Of a stretch of DNA of 54,083 bases, positions 27,914 to 53,463 are shown piece after piece. The translations under genes were made by a program, and so were the position numbers. The notes beneath the pieces were generated by a model. It searched no databases. It was not told where the DNA came from and saw nothing but the letters and a program-made list of their open reading frames with translations. This DNA is from Nitrospirota bacterium. GTDB taxonomy: Bacteria > Nitrospirota > Nitrospiria > Nitrospirales > Nitrospiraceae. Location of the stretch: positions 1 to 54,083 of the forward strand of contig VBOL01000043.1 of the NCBI GenBank assembly GCA_005887945.1. Reading direction: 5' to 3'. Positions within the stretch are counted from its first letter, which is position 1; each line of letters begins with the position of its first letter.

Positions 27914-28067
27914 GAAAACGGCGTCAGGAAATATCTCACGGCGCCTGGCGGGGAGCTGGTGCATCTGGTTTCTTCGGTCTGTCTCGTGTGTGTGGTTCGA
28001 CGAACGAAATAGGCAAGACAGACCCGAGCACCAGATAGACTGCCTCTGAACCGCCCTCATCTCACAC
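27914..28067 (+). repeat. HHT repeat (head-hairpin-tail), followed by extended tail type 1 to about 28190
   Basis: gaaaacggcgtcaggaaatatctcacggcgcctggcgggg + GT/AC hairpin + ctgcctctgaaccgccc..ctcacac. Starts 3 nt after the P4 stop. Confidence 0.85.
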
Positions 28068-28212
28068 CACACTCCCCCATCGCTTCCGGAGTGATGGATA
28101 CATCTACGATTTTACAGTAGACTTGCCCACAACAGATTGTTAAGCCTGCCTTGTTAAGTTGCAGGGTTAGACACAGCAGACTTATTAATTAGCCACGTCG
28201 CGAACCATACCG

Positions 28213-29577
28213 GTGAGGCTTCGGATGCCGAAGATTGACCCTGAGACGTTCCGAGGGAAGCTCTACCTTCTGGCGGTCGACAAGCTCGTGATCGGCGCTC
28301 TGATGGCCATTGCATTCCTTCTCTATGATCGGTGGAAGACGCAAGAACTGCACAGCTACACTGACGCGCAGGAAGAAGTGCAGCTCGGGTTCAAGCGCGC
28401 GGAGTATATCAAACAGCTGGTCCCTATCGTCCTTGACAGTAAGCAAGACGTCCGGTACAGGGCGCATGCTTTTGGCGCCTTGGTGGAGACGAAGTCGATC
28501 GACGCGAACGCAGCCATCAACTTTGCTCAGAAGCTCTTGGACTCCAACGTTTTGGAGAGTGATGCGAGTGGGTTTGCGACGCCAACTGCGGAGGACTACT
28601 TCCTCAAAGTTATGCTCAAGACTATGCCTTTGGGTCTACCAGCGTTGCTCTATGAGTATCAACACATTCGTTATTCACGACCCACCAGCCATAGCCGAGT
28701 AGAACGTTCACCTCAGGACAACGTCGTAGTCTTCTGGAAAAGACCGTTTTGGGAGACGATACAAGGTTACGAAGACTCAAAGCTTCGCTACCAAGACTCA
28801 GAGCTTGAAGGAAAGTTGCTGGACTCAGACACATTCTTGTTCAAGAGTCTAGGTACCCTCCGCGATATCGTACTACCCATCACACGCGATGAGGCTGACA
28901 AGTTGGCGAGGCGCAAAGTAAAAGGTCTTCGGATCTTAGGCAGCATCGGTCTGCTTAACACCTCAAGTGACCCACGCGCGGTGACGCAGTTGATGACTGA
29001 AATCGACCCCACCAGTGAGGACCCGCGTGCTCTCGAAGTCGCCGCAATGATCATCCTTCTACTCCCCTACGACGACGATGGGTATGCGTGCACTGGCTTG
29101 AGCGATCGGCTCCTGGCAATCGTTTTGCGGCGCCAAGACTTGGCCTCGCGCCGCGAACACGTCGAGAATGAACGCATTCAGGTGCTAAACGCCGCAACGT
29201 CTTACCTCCTGCATTGTGCCAAATTTCAGAGGGTTGCAGAACGGCTCGAACCCACCATTCTCCCCGTCGTCCAAGAGTTCTCCGAGCGCTTGAAGCGGAC
29301 GCCGCCAGGTTCACGGGTTGCGTCGAACTATCCCGTGGGCGGACAATCCACGGTCGAGGACGCACTCATCCTATTTCTCGTGCGGGCGAATCGCGCCCCG
29401 AATCCATCCCAAGGTTCGAAGACCGAAGGTCTGCTTTCGGTGATATTCTCCTTGCCTGAGGAGAGGCTAGCGCAACAGAGTAGTATCTTGCAGGATCTCG
29501 CCCAAGAATGGAAATCCGAACGGATTAGTGGTGCAACTGGAACGCGGCCTAACCAAGGAATGCAGCCGATGCGCTGA
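28213..29577 (+). CDS. hypothetical protein, N-terminal TM helix + long all-helical (HEAT/ARM-like?) region
   Basis: 454 aa ORF. TM LYLLAVDKLVIGALMAIAFLLY. No family recognised. Confidence 0.65.
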   Translation: MRLRMPKIDPETFRGKLYLLAVDKLVIGALMAIAFLLYDRWKTQELHSYTDAQEEVQLGFKRAEYIKQLVPIVLDSKQDVRYRAHAFGALVETKSIDANAAINFAQKLLDSNVLESDASGFATPTAEDYFLKVMLKTMPLGLPALLYEYQHIRYSRPTSHSRVERSPQDNVVVFWKRPFWETIQGYEDSKLRYQDSELEGKLLDSDTFLFKSLGTLRDIVLPITRDEADKLARRKVKGLRILGSIGLLNTSSDPRAVTQLMTEIDPTSEDPRALEVAAMIILLLPYDDDGYACTGLSDRLLAIVLRRQDLASRREHVENERIQVLNAATSYLLHCAKFQRVAERLEPTILPVVQEFSERLKRTPPGSRVASNYPVGGQSTVEDALILFLVRANRAPNPSQGSKTEGLLSVIFSLPEERLAQQSSILQDLAQEWKSERISGATGTRPNQGMQPMR

Positions 29578-29630
29578 GTATGAAAAAAACTTTGCGAGCA
29601 GGCATAGTATTGACTTATGAAGACCACTGG

Positions 29631-29663
29631 GAAATAAAGAAACCATTTCGCGGCGCGTGGCGG
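29631..29663 (+). repeat. solo HHT head
   Basis: gaaataaagaaaccatttcgcggcgcgtggcgg with no hairpin after it. Confidence 0.7.
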
Positions 29664-29725
29664 ATATCATTTGAAGAGGCTGACACCGGCTGTCCAGGCT
29701 GGTATACTTGCGAGCAAGGTGGTCC

Positions 29726-29926
29726 ATGAGCAAAGTCGAAGCAATCGAACAGCAGATTGAGAAGCTTTCTCCCGCAGAACTTACGGCGTTCCGTTCCTGG
29801 TACGCTGCGTTCGATGCCGAGGCCTGGGATCGCCAGTTTGAGGCCGATGTCCAGGCGGGCAAACTCGATGCGATGGCTGACAAGGCGCTGCGTGGCCACA
29901 CCTCCGGCCAGTCCACGAAGCTTTGA
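29726..29926 (+). CDS. putative antitoxin (small helical protein)
   Basis: MSKVEAIEQQIEKLSPAELTAFRSWYAAFDAEAWDRQFEADVQAGKLD. AAGGTGG RBS. 4-nt overlap with the next gene. Confidence 0.6.
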   Translation: MSKVEAIEQQIEKLSPAELTAFRSWYAAFDAEAWDRQFEADVQAGKLDAMADKALRGHTSGQSTKL

Positions 29927-30177
29927 TTCATCATGCCTCACCAGAGTTTTGGTCCTGCTACAATGCCCTCCCCGCTCCAATCCGTGAACAGGCCGACAAA
30001 GCTTTTGCACTCCTGAAGGCGACCCCGCAACATCCGTCCTTGCATTTCAAAAAGGTAGGGCGATACTACTCCGCCCGTGTGAGCCTCAATTATCGAGCGG
30101 TGGGAGTTGAAGCCACGGACGGAATCGTGTGGTTCTGGATTGGCACACACGCAGACTACGACAAGTTAATTCGCTAG
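29923..30177 (+). CDS. putative ParE/RelE-like toxin
   Basis: 84 aa. HPSLHFKKVGRYYSARVSLNYRAVGVEATDGIVWFWIGTHADYDKLI pattern recalled from TA-type pairs. TTG start. Confidence 0.6.
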   Translation: MIHHASPEFWSCYNALPAPIREQADKAFALLKATPQHPSLHFKKVGRYYSARVSLNYRAVGVEATDGIVWFWIGTHADYDKLIR

Positions 30178-30314
30178 CCCATTTCCGGCGCGTGGCGGAG
30201 ATCTGGTTCATCTGGTTTCTTCGGTCTGTCTCGTTTGTGTGGTTCGACGAACGAGCGAGACAGGACAGACCCGCGCCCCAGATAGACTGCCTCTGAATCG
30301 CCCTCTCCTCACAC
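30178..30314 (+). repeat. HHT repeat (head 5-prime-truncated; begins directly after the toxin stop codon)
   Basis: cccatttccggcgcgtggcggagatctggttcatctggt...ccagatagactgcctctgaatcgccctctcctcacac. Confidence 0.85.
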
Positions 30315-30422
30315 AAGACTGCTACATCGTACGTTTACACTCTGCTCTTGTCCATAGTGCTAGGCAGCTCATTGCCGGTCTGGCGGAATGTTTGATCTGG
30401 GCGTTGCCCCTGCCTGGCTGAC

Positions 30423-31851: not shown

Positions 31852-31952
31852 GGGCAAGTCCTGCAATCCAAAATTTCGGCACAAAACGGGGACAGGCTAC
31901 TTTTCCGGAAAGAAAACGGTGTCAGGAACCATTTCGCGGTACGTGGCGGGCC
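31852..31952 (+). repeat. three tandem HHT head variants, no hairpin
   Basis: gggcaagtcctgcaatccaaaatttcggc / aaaacggggacaggctacttttccgg / aaagaaaacggtgtcaggaaccatttcgcggtacgtggcgggcc. Confidence 0.7.
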
Positions 31953-32045
31953 GGTTTCGTCCAATATACTAGGACATTTCCTTTACTTAGGGCTTGCTGC
32001 GACGTCTCTACTGAGCCTACAATATATCCCCTAGGAGTCAGGCCA

Positions 32046-32381
32046 ATGCGCTACAGTCGCTTTGTCAGGCGCATCGCCATCACGGGGGAAGCCTCTGTCA
32101 GGTTGTTTTCGACTGAGGACTCCGACGACGGAACCTTACTTGATGTTTCACGTAAGGGGGCCCGGCTCTGTATCAATCGCTTGTTTCGGCCTGGCCAGAA
32201 GCTCATGCTCATGCTGGATCTTCCCTGGGACGAGCCGCCCGTGGAAGTGCGTCTCGCTACGGTCAAGTGGGTGCACGAAGGCACTGTCGGCGTTGAATTT
32301 CTCAAAGTCGAAAACGACGATCGTGTCTCGCTCGACGTCTTTCTCGCCTCTCGATCTAAACTACCAGCGGGGGAGACATAA
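32046..32381 (+). CDS. PilZ domain protein
   Basis: RYSRFVRR (RxxxR) and DVSRKG (D/NxSxxG) c-di-GMP-binding motifs. 111 aa. Confidence 0.8.
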   Translation: MRYSRFVRRIAITGEASVRLFSTEDSDDGTLLDVSRKGARLCINRLFRPGQKLMLMLDLPWDEPPVEVRLATVKWVHEGTVGVEFLKVENDDRVSLDVFLASRSKLPAGET

Positions 32382-32460
32382 AGGTGTCGGAAACCGTTTC
32401 GGGGCGCGTGATGGGGGAAAGAAAACGGGGACATTCTGAATTTTGCGGCGCGTGGCGGGC
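32382..32460 (+). repeat. two tandem HHT heads starting at the PilZ stop codon
   Basis: aaggtgtcggaaaccgtttcggggcgcgtgatggggg / aaagaaaacggggacattctgaattttgcggcgcgtggcgggc. Confidence 0.7.
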
Positions 32461-33279: not shown

Positions 33280-33427
33280 TAGAGAGCTCCTCGAAAAGAC
33301 GAACCCACCATCGCCTATTCAGCGATCAATTATAATATGGTCTGAATTTCGCTGAACAATCTAACTGACTTTACGCAAATCTTCGACAGCGAGGGCTGTC
33401 AGACCCTCTTTAGTTTCGAACATCCAA

Positions 33428-33504
33428 GAAGGGGTCAGGTCTTGCAATCCAACATTTCGCAATTTGCGGAACGGTGTCAGGCCCCCATGTCCCGGCGCGT
33501 TACG
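33428..33504 (+). repeat. two degenerate tandem HHT heads
   Basis: gaaggggtcaggtcttgcaatccaacatttcgcaatttgcgg / aacggtgtcaggcccccatgtcccggcgcgttacg. Confidence 0.6.
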
Positions 33505-33564
33505 AATCGGCTCCCATTCACTATTCGGTACCCGCCAGAACCTAGGCTGCACCTTTGAGAAGCC

Positions 33565-33721
33565 AAAGGTGCCAGGAACCATTTCGCGGCGCGGGGCGGG
33601 GAGCTGGTCTATCTGGTTTCTTTGGTCTGTCACGTTTGTTTGGTTCGAAGAACGAGAGAGACAAGACAGACCCGCGCTTTAGATAGACTGCATCTGAATC
33701 TCCCCTCCCCTCCCCTCACAC
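33565..33721 (+). repeat. HHT repeat, followed by extended tail type 1 to about 33850
   Basis: aaaggtgccaggaaccatttcgcggcgcggggcgggg + hairpin + tail. Tail 1: agagtgatggatacgtctccgactttgcaatagacttgcccacaacggattgctgagactgcc. Confidence 0.85.
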
Positions 33722-33904
33722 TAGGCTCCCACGTCCTCTACAGAGTGATGGATACGTCTCCGACTTTGCAATAGACTTGCCCACAACGGATTGCTGAGAC
33801 TGCCTTGCTATGCTGTATGGGTAACCCGCAGCAGATTTATTAGTGAAGCGGCAGTGCGCCGCTAATCTTACGATGGGCCACGTTATGGCAAAAGGAGAAG
33901 CACC

Positions 33905-34051: not shown

Positions 34052-34064
34052 GGACCATTGAAAT

Positions 34065-34278
34065 GAAAAGATGTCAGGAACCCATTTCGCGGCGTGTGGC
34101 GGGGATCTGGTCTATCTGGTCTATCAGGTCTGTCTGGTCTGTCTCGTTTGTTTGGTTCGACGAACGAGAGAGGCAAGCCAGACCCGCGCACCAGTTAGAC
34201 CGCCTCTGAATCGCTCCCTCCTCCCCTCACACAGCGATAGACCTGGTCGCCTCACGAAGTAGGATGTCCCGGTTTCTC
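34065..34278 (+). repeat. full-length HHT element with tail type 2 and an inverted terminal motif
   Basis: Head gaaaagatgtcaggaacccatttcgcggcgtgtggcgggg. The end aggatgtcccggtttctc is an approximate inverted repeat of the head start gaaaacgg(t/g)g(t/a)c. Confidence 0.8.
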
Positions 34279-34673: not shown

Positions 34674-34905
34674 TCAAGCTCGAATGCCAATCACTTCCAG
34701 ATATTCGGCGAAGACCGTGGTGCAGTCCATCCCCGCGCGATTGTGAGAAGACCATAGGCCATCGAGTTCCTGGCGAAGACTCTCACTGCCGCCGATGTCA
34801 AAGGATGCAAGCGCCTGATTGGTTGGTCCGTAGTAGAGGCGGAAGAACTCCACCACCTCCGAGGGAAGAAAGGGATAACTGACCGCATAGTGGCGCATGA
34901 CCAGG
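34674..34905 (-). pseudogene. C-terminal fragment (about 75 aa) of a SAM-dependent methyltransferase
   Basis: SEVVEFFRLYYGPTNQALASFD...EYLEVIGIRA matches recalled C-termini of about 260-aa methyltransferases. The 5-prime part is missing, cut at the repeat boundary at about 34904. Confidence 0.45.
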
Positions 34906-35488
34906 AACAAAAAGGGGACAAGCTACTTTTCTGGAGTTCAGTCGCATGGGCGCAAGGTGGACAAGATATCGGAAACCGATGCGATCTGGGCCTGCCACTC
35001 TGGTGAGCCAATCGCACGTGAGGAGCGGCACGCACTGGTTATCGTCCACTCGCTGACAACGAATCCCTACTGCGCATAATTCTCGACGACCTGCAGCGTG
35101 CGAACTTGCGCCTCGTCTGGGTCAAGCCCGACATCGCGAAGGGCACGTCGCTGGCGCATGAGGTCCCAGCACTGATCCAGTTCGACCTGGACTTGCGCGA
35201 GCCGCTTACGATCGGCTTGTACGATCGGCTTGGTGGAGTGCCCTCTGCTCGTACAATCGGTGTTCCTCTGCGACAAGGTGCTGAATATGATTGAGGACCG
35301 GCTGATCTTCGCCTTGATTCTCCACGAGAGCCTCCTCCAACGCGGATGTGATCGGAACGGTCAGGCTTAGATGTTACGCCCACCCGAAACCGCGGTCAAC
35401 CGATGCTCTGGCCAACATGATGACCCCGGCGTAGGTTGCCAGAAGAAAGAGAATGTGCCCGAAACTATTTCGCGGCGCGTGGCAGGCC
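34904..35488 (+). repeat. segmental duplicate 1 of the DUF2630 cassette (alt head ... solo head)
   Basis: Aligns by eye end to end with 38501-39080. Starts ggaacaaaaaggggacaagctacttttctggag and ends gaatgtgcccgaaactatttcgcggcgcgtggcaggcc. Confidence 0.8.
35067..35325 (-). pseudogene. DUF2630-family gene inactivated by a 13-bp tandem duplication
   Basis: VENQGEDQPVLNHIQHLVAEEHRLYEQRALHQADRTSRS-stop. + strand cttACGATCGGCTTGTACGATCGGCTTGg versus a single copy in the paralog. The downstream frame matches the DUF2630 C-terminus. Confidence 0.75.
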
Positions 35489-36008: not shown

Positions 36009-36049
36009 GAAAAAATTGGGACATTCTGAATTTTGCGGCGCGTTGCGGG
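36009..36049 (+). repeat. solo HHT head (alt type)
   Basis: gaaaaaattgggacattctgaattttgcggcgcgttgcggg. Confidence 0.65.
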
Positions 36050-36147
36050 TCGGCTCTTTTCACCTGAATGGTGAAGTAGCCGGCAGATGAAATTTGTTAT
36101 GTTAGCGGGTGCGGAGGTATGTAAGCCATTCGACTGGAGAGGGCGAG

Positions 36148-36700: not shown

Positions 36701-36864
36701 AAAAAGAAACAAGTATCCGGTGCAGCACTTGGCGGGGAGCTGGTTCATCTGGTCTATCTGGTTTGTCTGGTTTTTCTGGTCTGACTCGTTTGTTTGGTTC
36801 GAAGAACGAGAGAGACAAGACAGACCCGCGCACCAGATAGACTACCCGGAATTCGCCGTCCTCC
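36701..36864 (+). repeat. HHT repeat (degenerate head)
   Basis: aaaaagaaacaagtatccggtgcagcacttggcggggagctggttcatctggtctatctggt...caccagatagactacccggaattcgcc. Confidence 0.8.
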
Positions 36865-37050
36865 GATTCGCCATTCGTGATGCTGATGCCATCTTATAGT
36901 TTCCCTTATCTTCTTCCCCTTTGACTCCTCCCACGCCACTCAAGAGAACGCCTGCACATCGCATAATGGGCTCGCTTTTTCATTGACTTAGGATCTAATC
37001 ATCGAGTGCTAAGGTTCATATGGATCTGGACCACTCCAGTCATGTGAACG

Positions 37051-38277: not shown

Positions 38278-38325
38278 CTAACCACCATCGGCCCTCTACT
38301 TCGCCGGGCATTGTCGTACTGAATT

Positions 38326-38478
38326 GAAAAGGTGCCTAGAAGAATTTCGCGGCTGGTGGCGGGGAGTTGGTTCATCTGGTCTCGTTGGTCTGTCTTGTTT
38401 GTTTGGTTTGACGAACGAGAGAGACAAGACAGACCCGCGCACCAGATAGACTGCCCCTGAATCGCCCTCCCCTCACAC
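38326..38478 (+). repeat. HHT repeat
   Basis: gaaaaggtgcctagaagaatttcgcggctggtggcgggg + ggtctgtcttgt...acaagacagacc stem + ctgcccctgaatcgccctcccctcacac. Confidence 0.85.
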
Positions 38479-38500
38479 AAGACGGCCACAACAACATCGA

Positions 38501-39080
38501 GAAACAAAAATGGGACTGGCTACTTTTCTGGAGTGTTTCGTGGTCGGCCGCGTGGGCTCAAGGTGGGCAAGATGTTGGAAACCGATGCGATCAGGGCCTG
38601 CCACTCTGGTGAGCCAATCGCACGTTAGGGGCGGCACGCACTGGCTATCGTCCGCTCGCTGACGACCAATCCCTACTGCTCATAATTCTCGACGACCTGC
38701 GGCGGGCGAACTTGCGCATCGTCCGGGTCAAGCCCGACGTCGCGAAGGGCACGTCGCTGGCGCAAGAGGTCCCAACACTGATCCAGTTCCACCTGGACTT
38801 GCACGAGTCGTTCACGATCGGCTTGGGGGTGTGCCCTTTGCTCGTGCAATCGGTGTTCCTCTGCGACAAGGCGCTGAATATGATTGAGGACCGGCTGATC
38901 TTCCACTTGATTCTCCATGAGAGCCTCCTCCCACGCGGATGTGATGGGAACGGTCAGGCTTTGATGTTACGCCCACCCTAAACTGAGGTCAATCGATGTT
39001 CTGCCAACATGATGACCTCGACGTAGGTTGTCAGAAGAAAGAAAATGTGCCAGAAACCATTTCGCGGCGAGTGGCGGGCC
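38501..39080 (+). repeat. segmental duplicate 2 of the DUF2630 cassette (intact gene)
   Basis: See 34904-35488. Confidence 0.8.
38673..38918 (-). CDS. DUF2630 family protein
   Basis: 81 aa. LVAEEHRLHEQ...VELDQCWDLLRQRRALRDVGLDPDDAQVRPPQVVENY is a typical family pattern. Confidence 0.8.
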   Translation of the reverse strand: MENQVEDQPVLNHIQRLVAEEHRLHEQRAHPQADRERLVQVQVELDQCWDLLRQRRALRDVGLDPDDAQVRPPQVVENYEQ

Positions 39081-39212
39081 TGCTCAGTTCGTCATTCCTC
39101 GCTCGCTTCTTCTGCCGGCGTTGATCTCATTCGCACGCGCATGCCTCCGGTAACCGCCTGACTCCACACCCCCTCTGTTCTTGCTATAATCCCGCCCCTG
39201 TGAGGACCACTG

Positions 39213-39746
39213 ATGCGGAGACGTTACGATCACGTTGACCTGAGGGTGCGCAGTCTGGCCGAGGCGCAACCCCTCTACGAAACACTTCTGCCTGCACTGG
39301 GGTTCACACTCGACGTGGGGATCGAAGGCTGGCTGCAGTTTGAAGCGGCCGGAGAGAACAGCGTTAGTGAGTTTTTTGGCGTCACTGAGTCGTCGCGGCA
39401 TGTCGCCAACGAGTGCCGGATCGCCTTCTGGGCAGACAGCACCAGAGAGGTGGATAGGCTGGCTGAGATCGTCGTCCGGGCGGGAGCTCGGAATGTCGAA
39501 GGCCCTGGATATCACGAAGGGCCGGGCTACTACGCTGTCTTTTTCGAGGATCCCAGTGGCAATCGTTTGGAAATCTGCCACCGAGCCGAAGGGGCCAGAT
39601 GGATCAAGACAGGAAAAGATGCCAGAACCCATTTCCCGGCGCATGGTGCGGAGCTGGTTCATCTGGTTTCCTTGGTCTGTCTCGTTTGTTTGGTTCGACG
39701 AACGAGAGAGACACGACAGACCCGCCACCAGATAGACCGCCTTTGA
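39213..39746 (+). CDS. VOC/glyoxalase-family protein whose reading frame runs into the following HHT repeat
   Basis: YDHVDLRVRSLAEAQPLYETLL...YYAVFFEDPSGNRLEICH is a VOC fold. The last about 45 codons (KDARTHFPAHGAELVHLVSLVCLVCLVRRTRETRQTRHQIDRL) are repeat-encoded. Confidence 0.75.
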   Translation: MRRRYDHVDLRVRSLAEAQPLYETLLPALGFTLDVGIEGWLQFEAAGENSVSEFFGVTESSRHVANECRIAFWADSTREVDRLAEIVVRAGARNVEGPGYHEGPGYYAVFFEDPSGNRLEICHRAEGARWIKTGKDARTHFPAHGAELVHLVSLVCLVCLVRRTRETRQTRHQIDRL

Positions 39747-39768: not shown

Positions 39769-39832
39769 GCAGTATCAGCGCTATGCGCTTCCTCCACCAC
39801 CATACCTGCTCTGTCCTAGTTGACGCTTATAC

Positions 39833-41916: not shown

Positions 41917-42369
41917 ATGGCACATACCGTCCGACAAGCCACCATTCGCGATCTGGAGCAACTCGTCCCGCTGTTTGACGGCTATCGTCAGTTCTACGGT
42001 CGCGTAAGTGATCTTCGCGCGGCAAGAGAGTTCTTGCTGGCTCGCTTTACCAACGACGAGTCCACCGTGTTCCTCGCACATGAGGACGAGAGGGCTATTG
42101 GTTTCACGCAGCTGTATCCGAGCTTTTCATCGATCTCACTCGCTCGTATCTTCATACTCAATGATCTATTCGTCTACGAGCAGGCGCGCAGAAAAGGAGT
42201 GGCCTCTGCTCTGATGTCTGCTGCCGTGAAGTTTGCAACTGCTTTGGGTGCGGCTCGCCTCTCACTGTCAACGGCCATCACAAACGACGCTGCTCAGGCG
42301 CTATACCACTCAGCTGGTTGGAAGCGTGATGACCAGTTCTTCGTCTATGATCTTGAAGTCCCGACGTGA
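41917..42369 (+). CDS. GNAT family N-acetyltransferase
   Basis: Start at MAHTVRQATIRD. Acetyl-CoA motif RRKGVASALMSAAVKFA. 150 aa. Confidence 0.85.
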   Translation: MAHTVRQATIRDLEQLVPLFDGYRQFYGRVSDLRAAREFLLARFTNDESTVFLAHEDERAIGFTQLYPSFSSISLARIFILNDLFVYEQARRKGVASALMSAAVKFATALGAARLSLSTAITNDAAQALYHSAGWKRDDQFFVYDLEVPT

Positions 42370-42372: not shown

Positions 42373-42500
42373 GAAGGAGATAAGGGACCAAAATTTATTT
42401 CGTGGCCTGTGGCGGGGATCTGGTTCATCTGGTTTCTTTGGTCTATCTCGTTTGTTTGACTCGACGAACGAGAGAGACAAGACTGTCCCGCGCGTCGCTT
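42373..42500 (+). repeat. HHT repeat, 3-prime degenerate
   Basis: gaaggagataagggaccaaaatttatttcgtggcctgtggcggggatctggttcatctggt... Starts 4 nt after the GNAT stop. Confidence 0.8.
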
Positions 42501-42579
42501 CCCGCATTTTCAATTGGACTTCCAAATGTCTTGGCGCTTACCGTAAAATAGTTTTTGCCGTCACATTGGGAAAGGAGAG

Positions 42580-43467: not shown

Positions 43468-43653
43468 TTTTTTGGGGCCACCTCAAGTCTTGCAATCACA
43501 CATTCCGCGGCGCGTGGCGGGAATCTCGTCCATCTGGTTTCTCTGGTTTATTTAGTTTTTTTGGTTCGTTTGGTTGGGAACGTGACAAACCAGATAAACC
43601 AAGCCAACCAGATAAACTGTCTGCGAATCGCCCTCGCCTTCCACAAGGCTCCC
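43468..43653 (+). repeat. HHT repeat with a long hairpin
   Basis: cctcaagtcttgcaatcacacattccgcggcgcgtggcggg + arms + ctgtctgcgaatcgccc. Begins 9 nt after the IS3 remnant. Confidence 0.85.
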
Positions 43654-43843
43654 ACAAGACGACTGTCGTCGTTCGATGCAGGACAAAGACATGGCCCAGG
43701 CCGCCCTCCCTGATAACGTTGAATGTGTTCGCTCAGAATGCCCTTGTTGCTTTGTTCAGAAACCACTCTATTTCTAGGTCAATTGACTTCTCCTCGCTAT
43801 ACTCTTCCTCAGAATGCTGTAGGGTCATCCAGATATCGATGGA

Positions 43844-44686: not shown

Positions 44687-44809
44687 TCAAGTGTGCTGAG
44701 GCTGTTCCGTCCGCCAGTGCGTCCGATGCGTGAGCATCGCGTTGAGTGTCATCAGCCGTTTACGCATACAGGCGACGAGCGCCACCTTCGTGGATTTTCT
44801 CGAAGAATG
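44687..44809 (-). mobile_element. IS110-family transposase C-terminal remnant (about 40 codons)
   Basis: Own translation: HSSRKSTKVALVACMRKRLMTLNAMLTHRTHWRTEQPQHT-stop (ALVA.MRK.L..LNAML...W is the IS110 C-terminal signature). Its upstream part is replaced by the HHT head at 44802. Confidence 0.65.
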
Positions 44810-44986
44810 AATGTCAGGTCTTACAATCAAACATTTCGCGGCGCGTGGCGGGGATCTGGTCCATCTGGTCTGTTTGGTTCGTTTGGTTTGTCTGGTTTGT
44901 CTGGTTCAGAGAACGAAATAAACTAGATAAACCAGATAGACCAAACAAACTAGATAGACTGCCTCTGAATCACCCTCCCCTCACAC
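44802..44986 (+). repeat. HHT repeat with a long hairpin (tail type 2 remnant to about 45030)
   Basis: gaagaatgaatgtcaggtcttacaatcaaacatttcgcggcgcgtggcgggg + arms + gactgcctctgaatcaccctcccctcacac. Confidence 0.9.
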
Positions 44987-45175
44987 AACGAGGGACCAGC
45001 CCGATCCTGAAAAAGTAGAATCTCTCCGCGTGTTCATGTGAGAGGTATGTCATGAGCAGATTTCAAAACCAATTTACGAAGAGTTCCCACAGGAATGGTC
45101 ATCACAGCAATCAGTACGGTATTGAAACTATTCCCCCAGCACTGAAAACGATATGCCGCTGTCATGTTTTGCCAA

Positions 45176-46661: not shown

Positions 46662-46740
46662 CCGACGTGCGACACGGACACCTGTGGGAGAGATGGGGCC
46701 ATTGCTTGACTTTACACCTCGGCTAGAACCACAAGATATG

Positions 46741-46835
46741 GACAGACGCCCGTAACCATTTCGCGGCGCGTGGCGGGGATCTGCTTCCTCTGGTTCATCT
46801 GGTCTTTCTGGTTTATTTGGTTTATTTGGCGAGGT
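46741..46835 (+). repeat. HHT repeat, 3-prime truncated
   Basis: gacagacgcccgtaaccatttcgcggcgcgtggcggggatctgcttcctctggttcatctggtctttctggtttatttggtttatttgg. Confidence 0.8.
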
Positions 46836-46899
46836 TTCTAAGTACGTGCACCTGTCCATTTCTGTTGGGGAAAAGAGAAAGAATCCTGCAAGACAATGC

Positions 46900-47808
46900 A
46901 TGCTAACGCTAAGCGTACTACTTCTTTTCGGACTAGTTTGTTCAAAAGCTTTTGGCGAATCACCCGCTCCCTCCGTGCACTGGGGAAGCCTAGCGTTCCC
47001 GGATCAGTATTCAACCCTCAACACAGGGCTTACGCTCGACCGATTCACGCCAATAGATGGAGCTGGAGCCAAATATGATTCCACCGTGACCAATACGCTG
47101 GGCTTCAATTTAATTACATTCAGTTGGACGCAACACGGCCATGACCGTTTCGAAGGGTGGAGCATCAATGTCACGGGAGGTATTAGCCCCACAGCCAATC
47201 AGCCCAGCGAGTTCTTTCAAAACAAGGTCATTCACCAACTGCGCCACCTCCCGCCGGTGCCATCCTTCCAGCCGCGTCAGGATACGGATGCCATGTTCGA
47301 TGGATCGGTAACCAAGTGGTTTTTCAAAAACAAGACAGGGTTTTGGGGTGGTGGATTCTCCGCAGGCACCATCTATCAAGAGCAGTTTCTCAGGGCGGGC
47401 ATCCGACGGCTTCAAGTCACGCCGGATCTTTATCATGGAGACTGGGGAGCTGTGAGTGTGCGTTTGTCTGGGCTCGGACGTGTAAGCGTCCAGGAAAATG
47501 GAGCCGTGTTACATCAGACTAAACCAACGTCACATATATTCCAGCCTGCCCTCGCAATCGGGCAATACAATACGAACGAACGAGGTGAACAATATCCAAC
47601 ATGGGAGGTCGAAGTTTCAGCCACATGGGATTCCGGAATTTTTGTTAATGGGGTTGGGCAAAGCCGGAAACAGTTCTTTTGGTCCGCGGCTTTCATTTGC
47701 GGCCCGGTCCGTTTTGAGACATGGAACGATAGTCTGGGAAACCTGAGTAAGTCTGATTTTGGCCCAACCTACGGCGCAACCATCACGATTGACGTTTTTC
47801 GGCTATAG
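46900..47808 (+). CDS. hypothetical secreted protein (possible beta-barrel)
   Basis: Start MLTLSVLLLFGLVCSKAFG (signal peptide). 302 aa. No family recognised. Confidence 0.6.
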   Translation: MLTLSVLLLFGLVCSKAFGESPAPSVHWGSLAFPDQYSTLNTGLTLDRFTPIDGAGAKYDSTVTNTLGFNLITFSWTQHGHDRFEGWSINVTGGISPTANQPSEFFQNKVIHQLRHLPPVPSFQPRQDTDAMFDGSVTKWFFKNKTGFWGGGFSAGTIYQEQFLRAGIRRLQVTPDLYHGDWGAVSVRLSGLGRVSVQENGAVLHQTKPTSHIFQPALAIGQYNTNERGEQYPTWEVEVSATWDSGIFVNGVGQSRKQFFWSAAFICGPVRFETWNDSLGNLSKSDFGPTYGATITIDVFRL

Positions 47809-47851
47809 ACCATAGGTGCCCACGGGGCGCTCACTAGAAGTCCCCCTCTCC

Positions 47852-48010
47852 AAGAATGAGATTAGCCTTGCACTCAATCATTTCGCAGCGCGTAGCGGGA
47901 ATCTGGTTGAACTGGTCTTGCTGGTCTATCTTGTTTCTCTGGTTGGTCTTGTCAGAGAACCCAATACACAAGGCAGACCCGCGCACCAGCTCAACTAGTC
48001 TGGAGGTGCC
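47852..48010 (+). repeat. HHT repeat (diverged)
   Basis: aagaatgagattagccttgcactcaatcatttcgcagcgcgtagcgggaatctggttgaactggtcttgctggt...gcagacccgcgcaccagctcaac. Confidence 0.75.
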
Positions 48011-48122
48011 GTCCGCTCATTTAGCACGAAGCCCTCTCTCAAGGAACCAAATCATTCGACACGCGATTCCCAACTTTGCCACACCTATGTGTCTTTTGTG
48101 TGTGAACTCCATCCATTACCCA

Positions 48123-48533
48123 TTACCGAACTTCAGGCTCTCCTTGAGTGGTTCCCTCATCGGAGGGATTGATATTCTTCTGTGCGGGAGGCGCCGCGTC
48201 AGGATTCTTCGATATGCCCGGATCGATGTCGGGCGGGTTAATGGTGGCATGGGGATCTCCACGTTGCACCGGCACGTGTTGGATGCCCGGATCTATCGTG
48301 GACGGAGGAGTGGATGGAACACCAGACTCCCTCTCCTCGGGGATAGGGACAGGAGGAGGCGCGCCACCGCCCTCAGGCGGGGCAGGCGGGAGCCTATCGG
48401 CGGAGATGGCCAGTGCCGGAAGGAGGCTCAGAATGGCTATGGCCACAAATCCAGAAGCCTCCCTGGATCCTCTTCTGGTAGAGAATACGCGAAGAACCCT
48501 ACCATATTCATGTTTTGACCACGACATATTCAC
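48123..48533 (-). CDS. hypothetical proline-rich secreted protein
   Basis: 136 aa ORF. Signal-like FVAIAILSLLPALAISA, then low-complexity P-rich repeats (DPGI.. x3). Confidence 0.45.
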   Translation of the reverse strand: MNMSWSKHEYGRVLRVFSTRRGSREASGFVAIAILSLLPALAISADRLPPAPPEGGGAPPPVPIPEERESGVPSTPPSTIDPGIQHVPVQRGDPHATINPPDIDPGISKNPDAAPPAQKNINPSDEGTTQGEPEVR

Positions 48534-48565
48534 CCATCGTCTGTGATGACATTTGAGGGCTCGAC

Positions 48566-48709
48566 CTACTGAGGCTTACCTCCGCATCCCTTATAGGCAC
48601 AGGAACAGGGGTCGCCGGTTCTTGCATCTCGGCATTTTAACGAACAAAATTCTTTCCCCGGATCGGTCGGACACTTACAGCTCGGGTGCGCGCATTGTTT
48701 TTCTACCAC
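48566..48709 (-). CDS. cysteine-rich mini-protein (47 aa), metallothionein-like pattern
   Basis: Not in the ORF track. Own translation from GTG (GGAGGGA RBS): VVEKQCAHPSCKCPTDPGKEFCSLKCRDARTGDPCSCAYKGCGGKPQ-stop. 8 Cys + 1 His. Confidence 0.45.
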   Translation of the reverse strand: MVEKQCAHPSCKCPTDPGKEFCSLKCRDARTGDPCSCAYKGCGGKPQ

Positions 48710-49059
48710 GGTCTCCCTCCTTCTTTCGGTTGAGGGTAAGGAGAGTGCAGGGGGTCGGACAAGCCCTGTTCCCTGTCGCTCAGTGGTGTACTCGGTATAG
48801 CCAGATTGGCACCCGGGTCCATGATCTGAGGAGCCATATCACCTGCCTTTTCGACATCCCTACATCCCGAGGTGCTTCTTGAGAATCGATGAATCCGTGA
48901 TAGCGGGATTCTCGGGAGCCAGTGCTGCCGCCTGTTTGAAGGCATCAGTGGCCTCTTCATGATTTCTCATCTTGTCGAGACTGCGGCCCACGGTATAGTT
49001 GGCTTCGGCCAGCTTCGCGTCGGCCTTGAGTGCCCCAGCGGAGCATAGTCCGCAATTTA

Positions 49060-49233
49060 TTATTCTGCAGGCACCTTTGCCCCTTTGCGCCTCGCTTCCG
49101 AAAGTCCAATGGCAATGGCTTGCTGCCTGCCTTTGACTCGGGTGCCGCTCTTCCCGCTTATTAAAGTACCTTCTTTCAATTTATGCATCGCCCGCTTTAC
49201 CGACCGCTGTACGCTCTTGCCATACTTGGCCAT
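49060..49233 (-). CDS. DUF6496-family small basic protein
   Basis: MAKYGKSVQRSVKRAMHKLKEGTLISGKSGTRVKGRQQAIAIGLSEARRKGAKVP. Start moved to 49233. Confidence 0.7.
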   Translation of the reverse strand: MAKYGKSVQRSVKRAMHKLKEGTLISGKSGTRVKGRQQAIAIGLSEARRKGAKVPAE

Positions 49234-49248
49234 CATGCACCCCTTTCT

Positions 49249-49474
49249 GAAACGAAGAACGAGGGTCAGGTCTTGCAATCCAATATTTCGCGGTGCGTGG
49301 CGAGGATCTGGTTCATCTGGTCTCGTTGGTCTATCTCGTTTGTTTGGTTCATTTGGTTGGGGAACGAAACAAACCAGATAAACGAGACAAACCAGATAAA
49401 CTTCACTGACCTCCCCTCACACAACGATGGACCAGGCCGAACCATAGAAGAAGGGAGAATGTCCCGGTTTTCTC
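49249..49474 (+). repeat. full-length HHT element (head, long hairpin, tail type 2, inverted terminal motif)
   Basis: gaaacgaagaacgagggtcaggtcttgcaatccaatatttcgcggtgcgtggcgagg ... cccctcacacaacgatggaccaggccg ... gagaatgtcccggttttctc. Ends 5 nt from the stop of the gene at 49479. Confidence 0.9.
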
Positions 49475-50411: not shown

Positions 50412-50527
50412 GAAGGTCGGGCATAGCATTCCAATGTTTCCCGGCGCGTGGCGGAATCTGGTTCATCTGGTCTCCTTCGTCTATCTCGCACCAGATAGAC
50501 TGCCTCTGAATCGCCCTCCACTCACAC
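50412..50527 (+). repeat. HHT repeat with the hairpin apex deleted (tail type 2 to about 50607)
   Basis: gaaggtcgggcatagcattccaatgtttcccggcgcgtggcggaatctggttcatctggtctccttcgtctatctcgcaccagatagactgcctctgaatcgccctccactcacac. Confidence 0.85.
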
Positions 50528-50621
50528 AAGGCTCCGACCATACAGCAGTCCGCTGCACAACGAAGGCATGGACTAGGCCGCCCCTGAGAAAGTAGAATGT
50601 CCTTGTGTCGTCACCCCTTGC

Positions 50622-50945
50622 GTGAGAGCGATGAGCGTCAAGCGTTACACAAATATGCTCGAAGCCATAGAGGAGTTGAAGAAAAGAGGGTTCACCGGAA
50701 ACTTCGAGTTTCTTGATCAAACGTTCCGAGATCTGGACAGCGGCATAACCTTCAAGGCTGACCAACTCACCATCGTGGAACACGATCGGTTCGAGGGAGC
50801 AAGCGATCCGGATGACATGTCTGTCGTCTATGCCATGGAGAGTGATGATGGACTCAAAGGGGTCATTGCTGATGCCTTTGGTCTCTATGCCAATCCAGAC
50901 CTTGGCGGGTTTCTAGAGAAAGTGAAAATTCGAGAAGGGAAATGA
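50622..50945 (+). CDS. conserved hypothetical small protein
   Basis: 107 aa. YTNMLEAIEELKKRGFTGNFEF...FEGASDPDDMSVVYAMES pattern recalled from a widespread uncharacterised family. Alternative start at 50631. Confidence 0.6.
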   Translation: MRAMSVKRYTNMLEAIEELKKRGFTGNFEFLDQTFRDLDSGITFKADQLTIVEHDRFEGASDPDDMSVVYAMESDDGLKGVIADAFGLYANPDLGGFLEKVKIREGK

Positions 50946-50982
50946 TTAGTTGCCTGCCCCCATTTCGTAACGCGTGACAGGC
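50946..50982 (+). repeat. solo HHT head (degenerate), starting right after the stop codon
   Basis: ttagttgcctgcccccatttcgtaacgcgtgacaggcc. Confidence 0.55.
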
Positions 50983-51334
50983 CGACTCCATCAACTGCCT
51001 GCCGAGTTCCTCCGCAACGAGTCGACCGTCGGACTTATTCTCCCTCCCCCATCGGCCCTTCGGGCTCCACCGACTGGCGGCAGCCCTAGCGCATGCGGAT
51101 GGTGAGTAGTTTCTAAGCTCGGCCTAATGCCCGGCTAATTTTGCATGGTTAAGCTTAAGACATACTGGAGCTTAACCATGCATCACATCGGAATGCGGGT
51201 CTATTTGACAGCGATCGCATTGTTTATCTCCTCCCTCCTCGCACGATCCACTGTGTCTCGAGATAAAGTGCGGCCAAAGAAGACTCCACTGTAATTCGAG
51301 GTATTCCTTTCTCTCGGGAAAGCCGTAATTTTCA

Positions 51335-51475
51335 GAAATTGGAAGGTGTCAGACCCCATTCGCGGCGCGTGGCTGGGATCTTGTCCATCTGGTTTCATCG
51401 GTCTATCTCGTTTGTTTGGTTCGACGAACCAGAGAGACGAAACAGACCCGCACAGCAGATAGACTGCCTCTGCGG
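51335..51475 (+). repeat. HHT repeat
   Basis: gaaattggaaggtgtcagaccccattcgcggcgcgtggctgggatcttgtccatctggtttcatcggtctatctcgtttgtttggttcgacgaacc...cagcagatagactgcctctgcggggg. Confidence 0.85.
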
Positions 51476-51521
51476 GGGACAGGAAAATGGGATAGGCTGA
51501 GCTAGTCCGGGATGTTGATAA

Positions 51522-52961
51522 CTAGAACTGATTCCAGAGCATTTGGTTTGTTACTTCGTGGTGAAAAAGCACTTCCGAAGCCTTCACTATCGTGCCGAGC
51601 TCTTTCGGAGAACGATCTGCCACCAACTGTTTGAAGCTCGCATACTTTTGCTTGCTGTCCTCGCCGAGGATCTCGCCAATAAACTTCGACGAGTTAAATA
51701 GCGCGATCGCATCATTGATGTAACTCGGAAGGAATCGCACGCGGTCGCGTGCCGTCTCATCCTTTTCCAGGCGCTCCCCTTCTAAGCCGGTCTTGAGCAT
51801 CGTGTACAGCACGAGGTAGGGGTTGGCATCAGGGGCGACTGAGCGCAGCTCGATGCGCGCAGTCTTTTCGTTGGCCATCGGAATGCGGATCATAGAACCG
51901 CGATCGATCGCCGAGACCTTGACCTGGTTCGGTGCCTCAAAATGCGGATCCAGACGGCGATACGCATTCACCGACGAATTAAACACTAGACAAATCTCGG
52001 ACGCATGATTCAGGAGTTTGAGAATGAAGTCCCACGCCACATCAGAAAGGCCATCTTTACCCTTCGCATCGTAGAAGATATTCTTGCCATTTTTGCTCAA
52101 GGAGAAGTTGGTGTGCATGCCGGAACCATTGATCCCAACGAATGGCTTCGGAAGGAACGTGGCCGTGTGCCCCATGGATCGAGCCACTTGGCGACAGATC
52201 AGTTTGTACAGCTGCACATGGTCTGCCGCACGAACAACTTCCGCATAGGAAAAGTTCATTTCGAACTGCGAGGGCGCGACCTCTGGATGATCTTTTTCGT
52301 TTTTGAAGCCCAGTGCACGCTGTGCCTCCGCCGACTTATCAATGAACTGGCGAAGCATGTCCATCGGAAGCGAGTGATAGTAACCGCCCGTTGAGATGAG
52401 TTTAAACCCGTTCTCGCGGTAGCGTTGCTCGGCGTTCTGCCCTTCCTCGAGGAAGCCTTCTATTTCGCTGGCAGCATACGCGGTCATACCCTGCTTTTTC
52501 TTGAGATTCTTCGTATACGACTTCAGCACGCCGCGGAAGTCGCTATGATACGGCGTACGATCACCGTTTAAAACGGACGCAAAGAAGATCACCTTCCCTG
52601 CCCCAATAACGTCGGCCGGAAAGTAGCGGATGGACGGCCAGTCAACTTCAAGACGCAGGTCCGACTCATGTTGCGGCGTGAACCCGCGGATGGACGACCC
52701 GTCAAATGTTAGATTCCCCAGCGACTCCAAAAGGAACTTCTTGTCGTAATCGAGCATGTGAAGACGTCCTTCAATATCCGAAAAACACAACGTCACGGCC
52801 TTGATCTGCTTCTCCTTTTTAAGCCACGCTGTATATTCCAGCTCCAGCTCTTTTGCGCTGACCCTCTCGGCACGCTGCGCCGCCTTGAGATTCATTTCTT
52901 CAAGTTCGTCATACGGTATCTCGAGGAAGGACTTCAGGTCAGCAGATTTATCCTCAGCCAT
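51522..52961 (-). CDS. glnA: glutamine synthetase family protein
   Basis: Start at MAEDKSADLK (52961). FDGSSIRGF, GSGMHTNFSL and NAYRRL signatures. 479 aa. Confidence 0.8.
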   Translation of the reverse strand: MAEDKSADLKSFLEIPYDELEEMNLKAAQRAERVSAKELELEYTAWLKKEKQIKAVTLCFSDIEGRLHMLDYDKKFLLESLGNLTFDGSSIRGFTPQHESDLRLEVDWPSIRYFPADVIGAGKVIFFASVLNGDRTPYHSDFRGVLKSYTKNLKKKQGMTAYAASEIEGFLEEGQNAEQRYRENGFKLISTGGYYHSLPMDMLRQFIDKSAEAQRALGFKNEKDHPEVAPSQFEMNFSYAEVVRAADHVQLYKLICRQVARSMGHTATFLPKPFVGINGSGMHTNFSLSKNGKNIFYDAKGKDGLSDVAWDFILKLLNHASEICLVFNSSVNAYRRLDPHFEAPNQVKVSAIDRGSMIRIPMANEKTARIELRSVAPDANPYLVLYTMLKTGLEGERLEKDETARDRVRFLPSYINDAIALFNSSKFIGEILGEDSKQKYASFKQLVADRSPKELGTIVKASEVLFHHEVTNQMLWNQF

Positions 52962-53293
52962 GGTTCCTTTATTAGTCTCTTGGCGCGAAAGTGTGGGCCT
53001 GGATACAAAACGAAGCAGCCGATAGTGTAGGCTTCTTGGGTTCGCGATCACCCCTGATCAGAGAATCCCCCAGGAGCAGCTACCGGGTGAAGACTTAGTC
53101 TGTCACGTCTCTTCTGGGCATGCAAGGGGTTGCCATCACGCGCGTCGAGCACACTCACGGAAAGGCCGAAGCGCCGTGATCGTGCACTTGGGATGGGCGG
53201 GCAGGGGATACCGGTGCAGGGCTGTAGCCAGAGGGTGCAGCCCTCGACGGTGACTACAACGGAAGTGGAATGCGAGTCAGCAAAGGATTTCGG

Positions 53294-53338
53294 GAAGAAA
53301 CAGGGTCTTGCAATCCAACATTTCGCGGCGCGCGGTGG
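53294..53338 (+). repeat. solo HHT head
   Basis: gaagaaacagggtcttgcaatccaacatttcgcggcgcgcggtgg. Confidence 0.7.
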
Positions 53339-53463
53339 ACCTGCGTCCTACCCAATATCGTACCAACGTCAGAAGCCAGAAGTCCTCCATTGAAACTGTC
53401 TCCTTTACGGGGAAGTTTGTGACTGCTCACTGGAAGGTGCTCCAACGACAGACGGTACGAGGG

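Follow-up and report, generated by a model that had tools for sequence, protein, structure and literature searches.

Is a region that is divided into small gene units by one repeated, strictly co-oriented motif an integron, or something else that behaves like one? The question is raised by a 25-kb stretch of a Nitrospira chromosome contained in contig VBOL01000043.1 (assembly GCA_005887945.1), which we analysed over positions 1 to 54,083 of the forward strand (54,083 nt, hereafter the window). A preliminary description, based on the sequence alone, had proposed an integron-like cassette array delimited by about 28 co-oriented head-hairpin-tail (HHT) repeat sites, without a recognisable integrase or canonical attC. 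We confirm the observation, and those of the proposed tests that we could run came out in favour of this interpretation.

We first examined the distribution of the repeat. Searching for the 19-mer ATTTCGCGGCGCGTGGCGG with up to 3 mismatches gave 21 matches, all of them on the + strand and within positions 27933-53338, against 0.02 expected by chance. A profile search of the head (nhmmer) found 27 sites with E<0.02 plus one partial site at 36722, all on the + strand and all within 27908-53341, and nothing credible in positions 1-27900 or on the - strand. Inspection of each site reproduced the split previously reported. Seventeen sites have a 9-mer arm or hairpin (27934, 30181, 33582, 34085, 36728, 38345, 39632, 41074, 41615, 42398, 43503, 44834, 46759, 47881, 49286, 50437 and 51358), and eleven are solo or tandem heads (29646, 31932, 32397, 32441, 33447, 35468, 36031, 39060, 40502, 50963 and 53321). 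Two 9-mer palindromes without a head do exist in the core region, at 10510-10612 and 13430-13560, but they belong to a different family.

HHT sites are found at 27908-28079 (starting at the stop codon of ORF 27141-27911), 30155-30326, 33557-33727, 34057-34239, 38318-38490 (whose hairpin folds better than shuffled sequence, z = -3.3), 39604-39777 and 51333-51472 (on the 3' side of the glutamine synthetase gene), with long 9-mer hairpins at 41590-41780, 43482-43667, 44808-45009 (z = -3.6) and 49260-49430, and an HHT variant at 47854-48021. A partial head with hairpin and tail lies at 36722-36868, a head and hairpin that has lost its tail at 42373-42512, a head with short hairpin and tail at 50417-50550, a head with a decayed left arm at 41050-41135, and a head with left-arm 9-mers only, preceded by a decayed second head, at 46732-46838. 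Solo heads occupy 29637-29668, 31905-31953, 35443-35486, 36009-36050 (of the GGGACATTCTGAA type), 39035-39081, 40482-40515 (after HigA) and 53295-53341 (upstream of glutamine synthetase). A degenerate solo head at 32374-32411 is the first of a tandem pair, and the second, at 32417-32460 and of the GGGGACATTCTGAA type, abuts it, so that it is a head-only mini-cassette of about 44 nt. At 33427-33460 the head is decayed, with the pre-head GGGTCAGGTCTTGCAATCCAAC kept and the core lost, and a degenerate solo head at 50936-50979 directly follows the stop of ORF 50622-50945. A further degenerate head, at 53160-53185, lies at the conserved end of the glutamine synthetase upstream region, where two of the loci fetched from related genomes (denoted here by L and a number), L083 and L030, have an intact head at the equivalent position. 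The array probably continues past 53341, because L030 and L083 carry further cassettes beyond the glutamine synthetase gene.

Pfam searches confirmed the gene content: a ParE-like toxin pair (29708-30177), NmrA/NAD-binding and cupin, PilZ, NagB/6PGL-family, CMD, DUF2630, YdjM, Glyoxalase/VOC and a YycE-like VOC, HigB(Gp49)/HigA(HTH_37), GNAT, di-haem DHOR, DUF6496, and glutamine synthetase (51522-52961, - strand). DUF2630 gave one Pfam match, at 35067-35276; the second copy, at 38544-39003, is inferred from a cassette duplication that had been noted previously and that is real (34938-35410 against 38544-39003, 90-92% identical). The gene at 34674-34910 is a truncated copy of a longer gene that is intact in L006. 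Stop codons of + strand genes lie 2-96 nt before the core, so the pre-head begins 0-40 nt after the stop.

We next asked whether the motif is peculiar to this locus. The same motif forms co-oriented clusters in about 31 Nitrospira species genomes and in 73 metagenome contigs. Multi-copy clusters occur only in Nitrospira, Nitrospiraceae or Nitrospirota records, and hits in other phyla are single. Of 470 copies, 469 are co-oriented within their sequence: 46 Nitrospira sequences hold 206 heads with none mixed in orientation, and the 73 metagenome contigs hold 264 heads, with one contig mixed. Blocks with exact matches cluster within 58-88 kb of large contigs (CAWKPI010000004 at 712-776 kb, CAWGQP010000010 at 272-360 kb, and CAVSTP010000004 at 792-856 kb). 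In the sequence available, and without a whole-replicon census relative to ori/ter, the motif is restricted to arrays: there are 28 copies in 25 kb of array, against 2 copies in about 108 kb of non-array Nitrospira DNA (window 1-27900, L001, L002, L128 and L130). In the window and 7 other genomes the variable region and array begin after the same pair of B12-binding radical-SAM genes (19343-23206, - strand, in the window), always in the same relative orientation.

Comparison with other genomes shows that the cassettes are shuffled. Window cassettes recur at 81-97% identity in a different order, for example in L095, L083 and L030, and the ends of shared blocks peak at -40..-1 (5' ends) and 0..+19 (3' ends) relative to the end of the core. 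The ParE-like toxin-antitoxin cassette is bounded in the window by the solo head at 29637-29668 on its 5' side and by the HHT at 30155-30326, whose core starts 2 nt after the stop of the ParE-like gene, on its 3' side; in N. defluvii (L051) it is also bounded by heads on both sides, with unrelated flanks. Eight genomes share the 41074 cassette, each with a different upstream neighbour joined at the core, and the decayed arm at this site travels with the downstream cassette. The DUF2630 unit has identical ends in four contexts: copy 1 (34903-35486, + strand, ended by the solo head at 35443-35486) shares its left end (AACAAAAA..) and right end (..GTGGCGGG) with copy 2 (38499-39078, + strand, ended by the solo head at 39035-39081), L030 and L044. 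Presence/absence differences are likewise bounded by cores. Two cassettes (46777-49303, + strand; 2.6 kb) that are present in the window are absent in L067, where the flanking cassettes are joined through a single head.

The only universal part of the repeat is a sharply bounded, asymmetric core of 20-21 nt, CATTTCGCGGCGCGTGGCGG(G), preceded by a loosely conserved pre-head of about 25 nt. In 179 copies the information content is 1.1-1.8 bits per position over exactly 20-21 nt and falls to 0.3-0.5 within one or two positions beyond. The hairpin built of 9-mers and the C-rich tail are optional, being found in 17 of 28 sites in the window and in about half of 201 sites across genomes; 97 of the 201 have no arm and no tail. 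The functional unit is the core, rather than the whole head-hairpin-tail element. Across 160 intervals the median cassette is 855 bp, 50% hold one gene, and 133 genes (69%) are co-oriented with the site against 59 opposite, statistics that look like those of an integron.

The sites themselves, however, fail as integron sites. No RYYYAAC...GTTRRRY complementary pair within 50-160 nt exists on either strand of the array (0 observed, 1.2 expected by chance), there is no inverted copy of the head in the window, and the hairpin has no covariation support. No integrase or recombinase domain was found anywhere in the window, and no IntI/Xer-like gene or other recombinase, nickase or transposase candidate was detected in about 1.5 Mb of fetched DNA, about 1 Mb of which is array DNA, apart from one ordinary IS3 transposase, although these searches used few queries and would miss novel families.

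Several explanations might account for such an array. It is possible, although we think it unlikely, that the repeat is a REP/MITE-like selfish or structural element that has colonised one flexible region, with cassette shuffling, loss and duplication resulting from RecA-dependent homologous recombination and gene conversion between direct repeats, without a dedicated enzyme. Indeed, full HHT copies are 120-190 nt long and 70-90% alike, which is enough for homologous exchange; hairpins and pre-heads at orthologous junctions are sometimes replaced, as expected under conversion or concerted evolution; related 9-mer palindromes exist outside the array; and no recombinase was found in the DNA searched. 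Yet half of the junctions share only the head of about 45 nt, of which only 20-21 are well conserved, a poor substrate for homologous recombination. Conservation is also sharply bounded rather than decaying evenly, nearly all copies are co-oriented although 31% of the genes run the other way, there are no terminal inverted repeats or target duplications, and this model does not explain how new genes come to lie between repeats.

More doubtful is a true integron cassette array (a CALIN in IntegronFinder terms) whose attC sites have diverged beyond recognition and are served by an IntI encoded elsewhere in the genome. The array architecture, cassette size, gene orientation bias and toxin-antitoxin content match sedentary chromosomal integrons, some pre-heads contain ATCCAAC, which fits RYYYAAC, followed by a 5-nt spacer as in the R''-L'' half of attC, and IntegronFinder 2.0 reported two CALINs in Ca. 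Nitrospira inopinata (PMC9024848), though it found nothing in other Nitrospira genomes. Against this reading, in addition to the absence of paired boxes, inverted heads, covariation and any IntI/Xer-like hit in about 1.5 Mb, half of the sites have no palindrome at all, and the conserved core lies outside the palindrome, whereas attC conservation lies in the R and L boxes at its base. We consider it least likely that the head is a host cis-element, such as a terminator or RNA-stability element, a protein-binding insulator, or a polar replication or segregation signal, that happens to sit between genes. It is intergenic and lies shortly after stop codons, polar, asymmetric motifs such as Ter and KOPS are co-oriented, and a head upstream of glutamine synthetase is kept even in relatives without an array (L001, L130). 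But its orientation ignores gene direction, there is no T-run and no Rfam match, its density is about 1 per kb in the array against the 2 copies in about 108 kb elsewhere, tandem heads with nothing between them exist, and cassette boundaries between genomes coincide with the motif.

Among known systems, sedentary chromosomal integrons and CALINs, for example the Vibrio cholerae superintegron with its VCR-type attC repeats, share with this locus tens of co-oriented, array-homogeneous repeats of 120-190 nt separating mostly single-gene cassettes of about 0.5-1 kb, with most genes pointing toward the downstream site, toxin-antitoxin, empty, fused or decayed cassettes, duplications, a fixed chromosomal position and an order shuffled between related genomes. 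Here, however, there are no R''/R' or L''/L' boxes, the conserved element lies at the 5' edge of, and outside, an optional palindrome, the inferred crossover lies upstream of the palindrome and not at its 3' base, and no intI, attI or Pc was found next to the array, including at the conserved rSAM-proximal end seen in 8 genomes. Xer-dependent dif modules (pdif modules of Acinetobacter plasmids) and IMEX arrays at dif similarly comprise small gene modules, often toxin-antitoxin or accessory genes, that are bounded by short recombination sites, served by a recombinase encoded elsewhere and found in different contexts; but pdif sites are 28 bp with an 11-6-11 dyad structure and alternate in orientation around modules, whereas the core described here has no dyad symmetry and no resemblance to the conserved XerD arm. 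REP/BIME elements with RAYT, and IS200/IS605-type palindrome-associated elements (HUH Y1 enzymes), also have a conserved linear motif next to an imperfect hairpin, an asymmetric, strand-specific site as expected for single-strand recognition, and uniform orientation. REPs, though, are spread genome-wide, often as inverted pairs, and do not delimit mobile gene units; no RAYT or TnpA(Y1) homologue was detected in our searches, and half of the sites lack a hairpin. In Neisseria minimal mobile elements, Correia elements and dRS3 repeat arrays, variable gene units sit between conserved flanks with short repeats at the junctions, but those units are exchanged by transformation and homologous recombination in the conserved flanking genes and are not built as long co-oriented arrays around a single conserved core.

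We favour, as somewhat more likely than not, an undescribed, integron-like chromosomal cassette platform of a kind specific to Nitrospira, in which units are exchanged, lost and gained at or immediately 3' of the core. Each unit ends on the + strand in a head of about 45 nt, whose last 20-21 nt form the core, so that a linear cassette reads as an optional GGAKCTGG 9-mer hairpin plus C-rich tail, the gene or genes, and the pre-head and core. This mechanism is inferred from comparative footprints and not demonstrated, as are the site-specific rather than homologous nature of the exchange, the position of the crossover to within about 10 nt, and the existence and location of the enzyme; no circular or excised form has been observed. 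Against this reading, the core lacks the dyad symmetry of the core sites of most tyrosine and serine recombinases, the replacement of pre-heads and hairpins at orthologous junctions means that the repeats also evolve by conversion or turnover that a simple cut-and-paste model does not require, and a housekeeping-type gene, glutamine synthetase, lies between heads. We propose that a site- and strand-specific recombinase or nickase, encoded outside the array, recognises the core. It would excise cassettes, which on circularisation would rebuild a complete head-hairpin-tail site, and re-insert them at other cores, occasionally at pseudo-sites, which would produce truncated genes. Toxin-antitoxin cassettes (ParE-like, HigBA) would help to stabilise the array.

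The window begins with 23 kb of core genes, namely rpsB, tsf, pyrH, frr, alr, a FadL-type porin, a hybrid histidine kinase, and two B12-binding radical-SAM (rSAM) genes at 19343-23206. Near its other end lies a glutamine synthetase gene (GS; 51522-52961, - strand), whose product is up to 93% identical to proteins from Nitrospira metagenome-assembled genomes. We found no tRNA or tmRNA gene, which excludes a tRNA-linked island. Rfam searches in both gathering and E-value modes returned no family, and the only hits were spurious miRNA-hairpin matches on the 9-mer palindromes.

The 19-mer ATTTCGCGGCGCGTGGCGG, allowing up to 3 mismatches, occurs 21 times, with all copies on the + strand between 27933 and 53338, as compared to 0.02 copies expected by chance. 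A profile of the head detected 27 sites with E<0.02 plus a partial one, all on the + strand within 27908-53341 and none in the first 27.9 kb. Reading of each individual site reproduced the count of 17 sites with a 9-mer arm or hairpin and 11 solo or tandem heads given in the preliminary description, and Pfam confirmed the gene content listed there. We also confirmed that one cassette is duplicated (34938-35410 against 38544-39003), and that one gene (34674-34910) is a truncated copy of a gene that is intact in L006, one of the fetched loci. Stop codons of + strand genes lie 2-96 nt before the core.

To define the anatomy of the repeat, we aligned 179 copies from the window and from other genomes on the core. 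A block of 20-21 positions, CATTTCGCGGCGCGTGGCGG(G), carries 1.1-1.8 bits per position, and the information drops to 0.3-0.5 bits within one or two positions beyond it. Upstream lies a loosely conserved pre-head of about 25 nt with an A-rich start, GAAAGAAAA, which comes in three variants: GGTGYCAGGAACC, GGGTCAGGTCTTGCAATCCAAC and GGGGACATTCTGAA. By eye, neither a sigma-54 or sigma-70 promoter reading of the pre-head nor a dif/XerD-arm resemblance was convincing, as the spacing does not fit or the similarity is limited to 7 of 11 positions in one subtype. We also asked whether GAATGTCCCGGTTTTC could be a terminal inverted repeat of cassettes; however, there are only 6 copies (4 on + and 2 on -), so that it represents a minor subtype and is not general.

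Downstream of the core there are two alternatives: either GGAKCTGG leading into an imperfect palindrome made of 9-mers (GGTCTRTCT...AGAYAGACC) and followed by a C-rich tail, or a GCCGGC-like sequence with no palindrome. Of 201 copies, 97 have neither arm nor tail and 49 have both. The C-rich tail is not an obligatory second half-site, since it is present after only 13-18% of solo heads and about 38% of full sites. The palindrome is not well supported as a conserved structure: single-strand fold z-scores were -3.6, -3.3, -0.9 and +0.4, and the consensus fold of 25 full sites was weak (-10 kcal/mol) with essentially no covariation (covariation term +0.09, with 2 of 19 pairs showing compensatory change). 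Tandem heads with nothing between them exist, for example at 32374 and 32417. Conversely, palindromes built from the same 9-mers (GGTCTGTCT / AGACAGACC) but without a head sit in core intergenic regions at 10510-10612 and 13430-13560, both followed by GGTTGGCG..CTTTTTC..CATCCTGCTA, and form a second repeat family that shares the hairpin module. The hairpin is therefore a separable module. A conserved extension of 70-116 nt (..GAGTGATGGATACGTCT..GACTTTGCAGTAGACTTGCCCACAAC..) follows three of the tails (28054-28169, 33708-33823 and 41787-41855) and lies upstream of three unrelated genes; it also follows head-hairpin-tail sites in other genomes, and may be a shared promoter, a 5' leader or a small RNA.

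Multi-copy clusters of the motif occur only in records named Nitrospira, Nitrospiraceae, Nitrospirota or Nitrospirae, representing about 31 different genomes, while hits in other phyla are single and look like chance. Viral contigs likewise gave only three single, core-only matches that look like chance. Forty-six sequences with two or more heads hold 206 heads, and none of these sequences has mixed orientation. Among metagenome contigs, 73 have two or more heads, 264 in total, and one of them (L177) is mixed; in this contig (1819-3344) one intact head faces three heads on the other strand across about 400 nt, which may reflect an inversion or a point where two arrays meet. On large contigs the matching 8-kb blocks fall close together, at 712-776 kb of a 994-kb contig, 272-360 kb of a 442-kb contig, and 792-856 kb of a 1.8-Mb contig. 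Non-array Nitrospira DNA is almost free of heads: window 1-27900 together with four GS loci from relatives, about 108 kb in all, holds two copies. The GS neighbourhoods of five relatives have no arrays, or a single head, and provided a useful negative control although they did not reveal an array end.

In the window and in seven other genomes the variable region starts right after the same rSAM pair, and heads always have the same orientation relative to that pair and to GS. The 5' end of the rSAM gene plus about 85 nt upstream is present three times in the window (23070-23290, 23908-24126 and 25425-25633; 79-90% identical), with unrelated small units between the copies, namely a 104-aa antitoxin-like ORF, and DUF5674 plus a 109-aa ORF. 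This looks like serial insertions at one site next to the gene, each bringing or duplicating the target, and the same boundary (ATTGTACGGGGG..CAAGGGCGG) is where seven other genomes diverge. Between the rSAM gene and the array there is also a separate 54-nt repeat family (CCTTGCTCSCRGAACGCGC..CTCGYTCGA..CGCAG; 24151-24204, 24343-24396, 25639-25692 and 25772-25825) that has no Rfam match. A low-GC (0.47) island of four co-directional ORFs (118, 109, 160 and 256 aa) with no Pfam or NCBIfam match, at 26024-27911, ends exactly at the first head-hairpin-tail site and is absent from the closest relative, L015. Short tandem runs of a C-rich 8-mer (TTACCCCT / TATCCCAC type) lie in two further intergenic regions (10983-11038 and 21303-21350). 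The GS gene lies between heads at 51333, 53160 and 53295; relatives without an array (L001 and L130) still keep one head 25-60 nt upstream of this gene.

Many window cassettes recur at 81-97% identity in other genomes, in a different order. For example, the locus L095 carries homologues of window segments 46983, 36756, 33565, 41600, 50960, 35567 and 41073, in that order. In two other genomes, L030 and L083, further cassettes follow on the far side of GS, those of L083 being from 41081, 46835, 41899, 48560 and 39209. Across all pairs of array sequences, the ends of shared blocks of at least 350 bp pile up at the core, with the 5' ends peaking at -40..-1 and the 3' ends at 0..+19 relative to the last G of GGCGG.

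Individual cases show the same thing. The ParE-type toxin-antitoxin cassette is bounded by a head on each side both here and in Ca. N. defluvii, with unrelated flanks. The cassette at 41074 is joined through the core to eight different upstream neighbours, and its decayed hairpin arm travels with it. The DUF2630 unit has the same left end and the same right end (..GTGGCGGG) in four contexts; two of the four left neighbours are not heads, and one is a truncated gene. The locus L067 joins the DHOR cassette to the 49286 cassette through one head, whereas the window has two extra cassettes (2.6 kb) at that point, separated by heads 46776, 47898 and 49303. Finally, L030 has a 4.2-kb block including GS between two cassettes that are adjacent in the window. 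We note in addition that an intergenic segment of the core region, 14385-14565, is 87% identical to 3588-3769 of the N. defluvii locus L051, where it lies next to a GNAT cassette homologous to window 41917-42353.

The pre-head and core usually stay with the upstream cassette, while what follows the core stays with the downstream cassette, from which we infer that the exchange lies at or within about 10 nt 3' of GTGGCGG. We infer that a circularised cassette would therefore rebuild a full head-hairpin-tail site. At some orthologous junctions the pre-head or hairpin has been replaced, so conversion or turnover among repeats also occurs.

The architecture works like a sedentary chromosomal integron, or a CALIN, in that co-oriented sites separate short, mostly single-gene cassettes that differ between strains. 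Over 160 head-to-head intervals the median is 855 bp, half hold one gene, and 133 genes are co-oriented with the site against 59 opposite, resembling integron cassettes. However, the sites lack the features that define an integron. No pair of inverse-complementary RYYYAAC and GTTRRRY boxes, as expected of attC (57-141 nt apart), was found on either strand of 27801-53400 when up to 1 mismatch in complementarity and distances of 50-160 nt were allowed (0 observed, as compared to 1.2 +/- 1.6 in first-order, dinucleotide-frequency-preserving shuffles). ATCCAAC is present in some pre-heads, but no partner GTTGGAT lies downstream. No inverted head copy exists, only about half of the 201 sites have any palindrome, and conservation lies in a linear core outside the palindrome rather than in paired boxes at its base; here the sequence is conserved and the structure is not.

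We also searched for an enzyme that could serve these sites. No recombinase domain was found in the window, and tblastn and phmmer searches with IntI1 and XerD gave no hit in 124 genome loci plus 120 metagenome contigs, about 1.5 Mb in all; this set includes eight views of the rSAM-proximal array end, but neither the distal end nor the rest of the genome. Searches with IS608 TnpA, gamma-delta resolvase and a Nitrospira large serine recombinase also found nothing, although only one query represented the HUH Y1 enzymes, and the gamma-delta query failed to detect the known large serine recombinase in L002, indicating poor sensitivity for distant serine recombinases. L002 belongs to a more distant Nitrospira lineage (L002-L004; GS 86% identical), in which the region downstream of GS (about 13.8-21 kb) holds a mobile island with no heads, carrying a 548-aa large serine recombinase, a PLD-family protein, a TraG/TrwB-like ATPase, DUF2130 and BrxL. 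Pfam analysis of recurrent and large ORFs from array loci showed only cargo-type proteins, small HNH endonucleases and one IS3 transposase. The latter is an ordinary IS3-family transposase (HTH_21 + rve) inserted in another genome's array (L012, 5699-6562), and was the only transposase seen in the array DNA that was examined.

IntegronFinder 2.0 reported only two CALINs in the whole phylum, both in N. inopinata (PMC9024848), and we found no paper that describes the motif or these arrays. Xer/dif modules do not fit, because by inspection the core has no dyad symmetry beyond the internal CGCG-G-CGCG and the sites do not alternate in orientation. MITEs do not fit, because the only inverted repeats found are the internal 9-mer arms and no target duplication was seen at the junctions that were aligned. 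REP/RAYT or IS200/IS605-type single-strand systems share the pairing of a linear motif with a hairpin, as well as strand specificity; however, no such enzyme was detected with the single query used on the fetched loci, and the elements described here delimit mobile gene units inside arrays and are clustered, not dispersed, in the data at hand.

These results support the preliminary description of the region as an integron-like array without canonical attC or a visible integrase, and extend it to a conserved feature of many Nitrospira species. We consider it somewhat more likely than not that the cassettes undergo site-specific, orientation-dependent exchange at the 20-21-nt asymmetric core, by an enzyme encoded elsewhere, although this mechanism is inferred and no such enzyme was detected in the DNA searched. 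Homologous recombination among REP-like repeats is an alternative that we consider unlikely, and a highly derived integron served by a distant IntI seems more doubtful still. It is possible, although less likely than not, that Nitrospira carry a second, evolutionarily independent kind of gene-cassette platform, in which arrays of 60-90 kb or more are anchored at a fixed chromosomal locus and their cassettes are mobilised through the core by an enzyme that is not an integron integrase. Such an enzyme may be a strand-specific nickase or HUH-type protein, or an entirely new recombinase, and would be encoded away from the array.

Integrons are so far the only well-established system in which bacteria stockpile and shuffle single-gene cassettes at a dedicated chromosomal platform. 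A functionally analogous array built on a different site, without a linked IntI, would show that this strategy evolved more than once, and would also point to an unknown recombination enzyme. The core is short, defined, and present in dozens of public genomes. Nitrospira are the main nitrite oxidisers and complete ammonia oxidisers in soils, freshwater and wastewater plants, and the cargo seen here includes detoxification, redox, regulatory, toxin-antitoxin and cell-surface genes. An array of 60-90 kb holding accessory genes would be a major, overlooked source of strain-level variation in these organisms.
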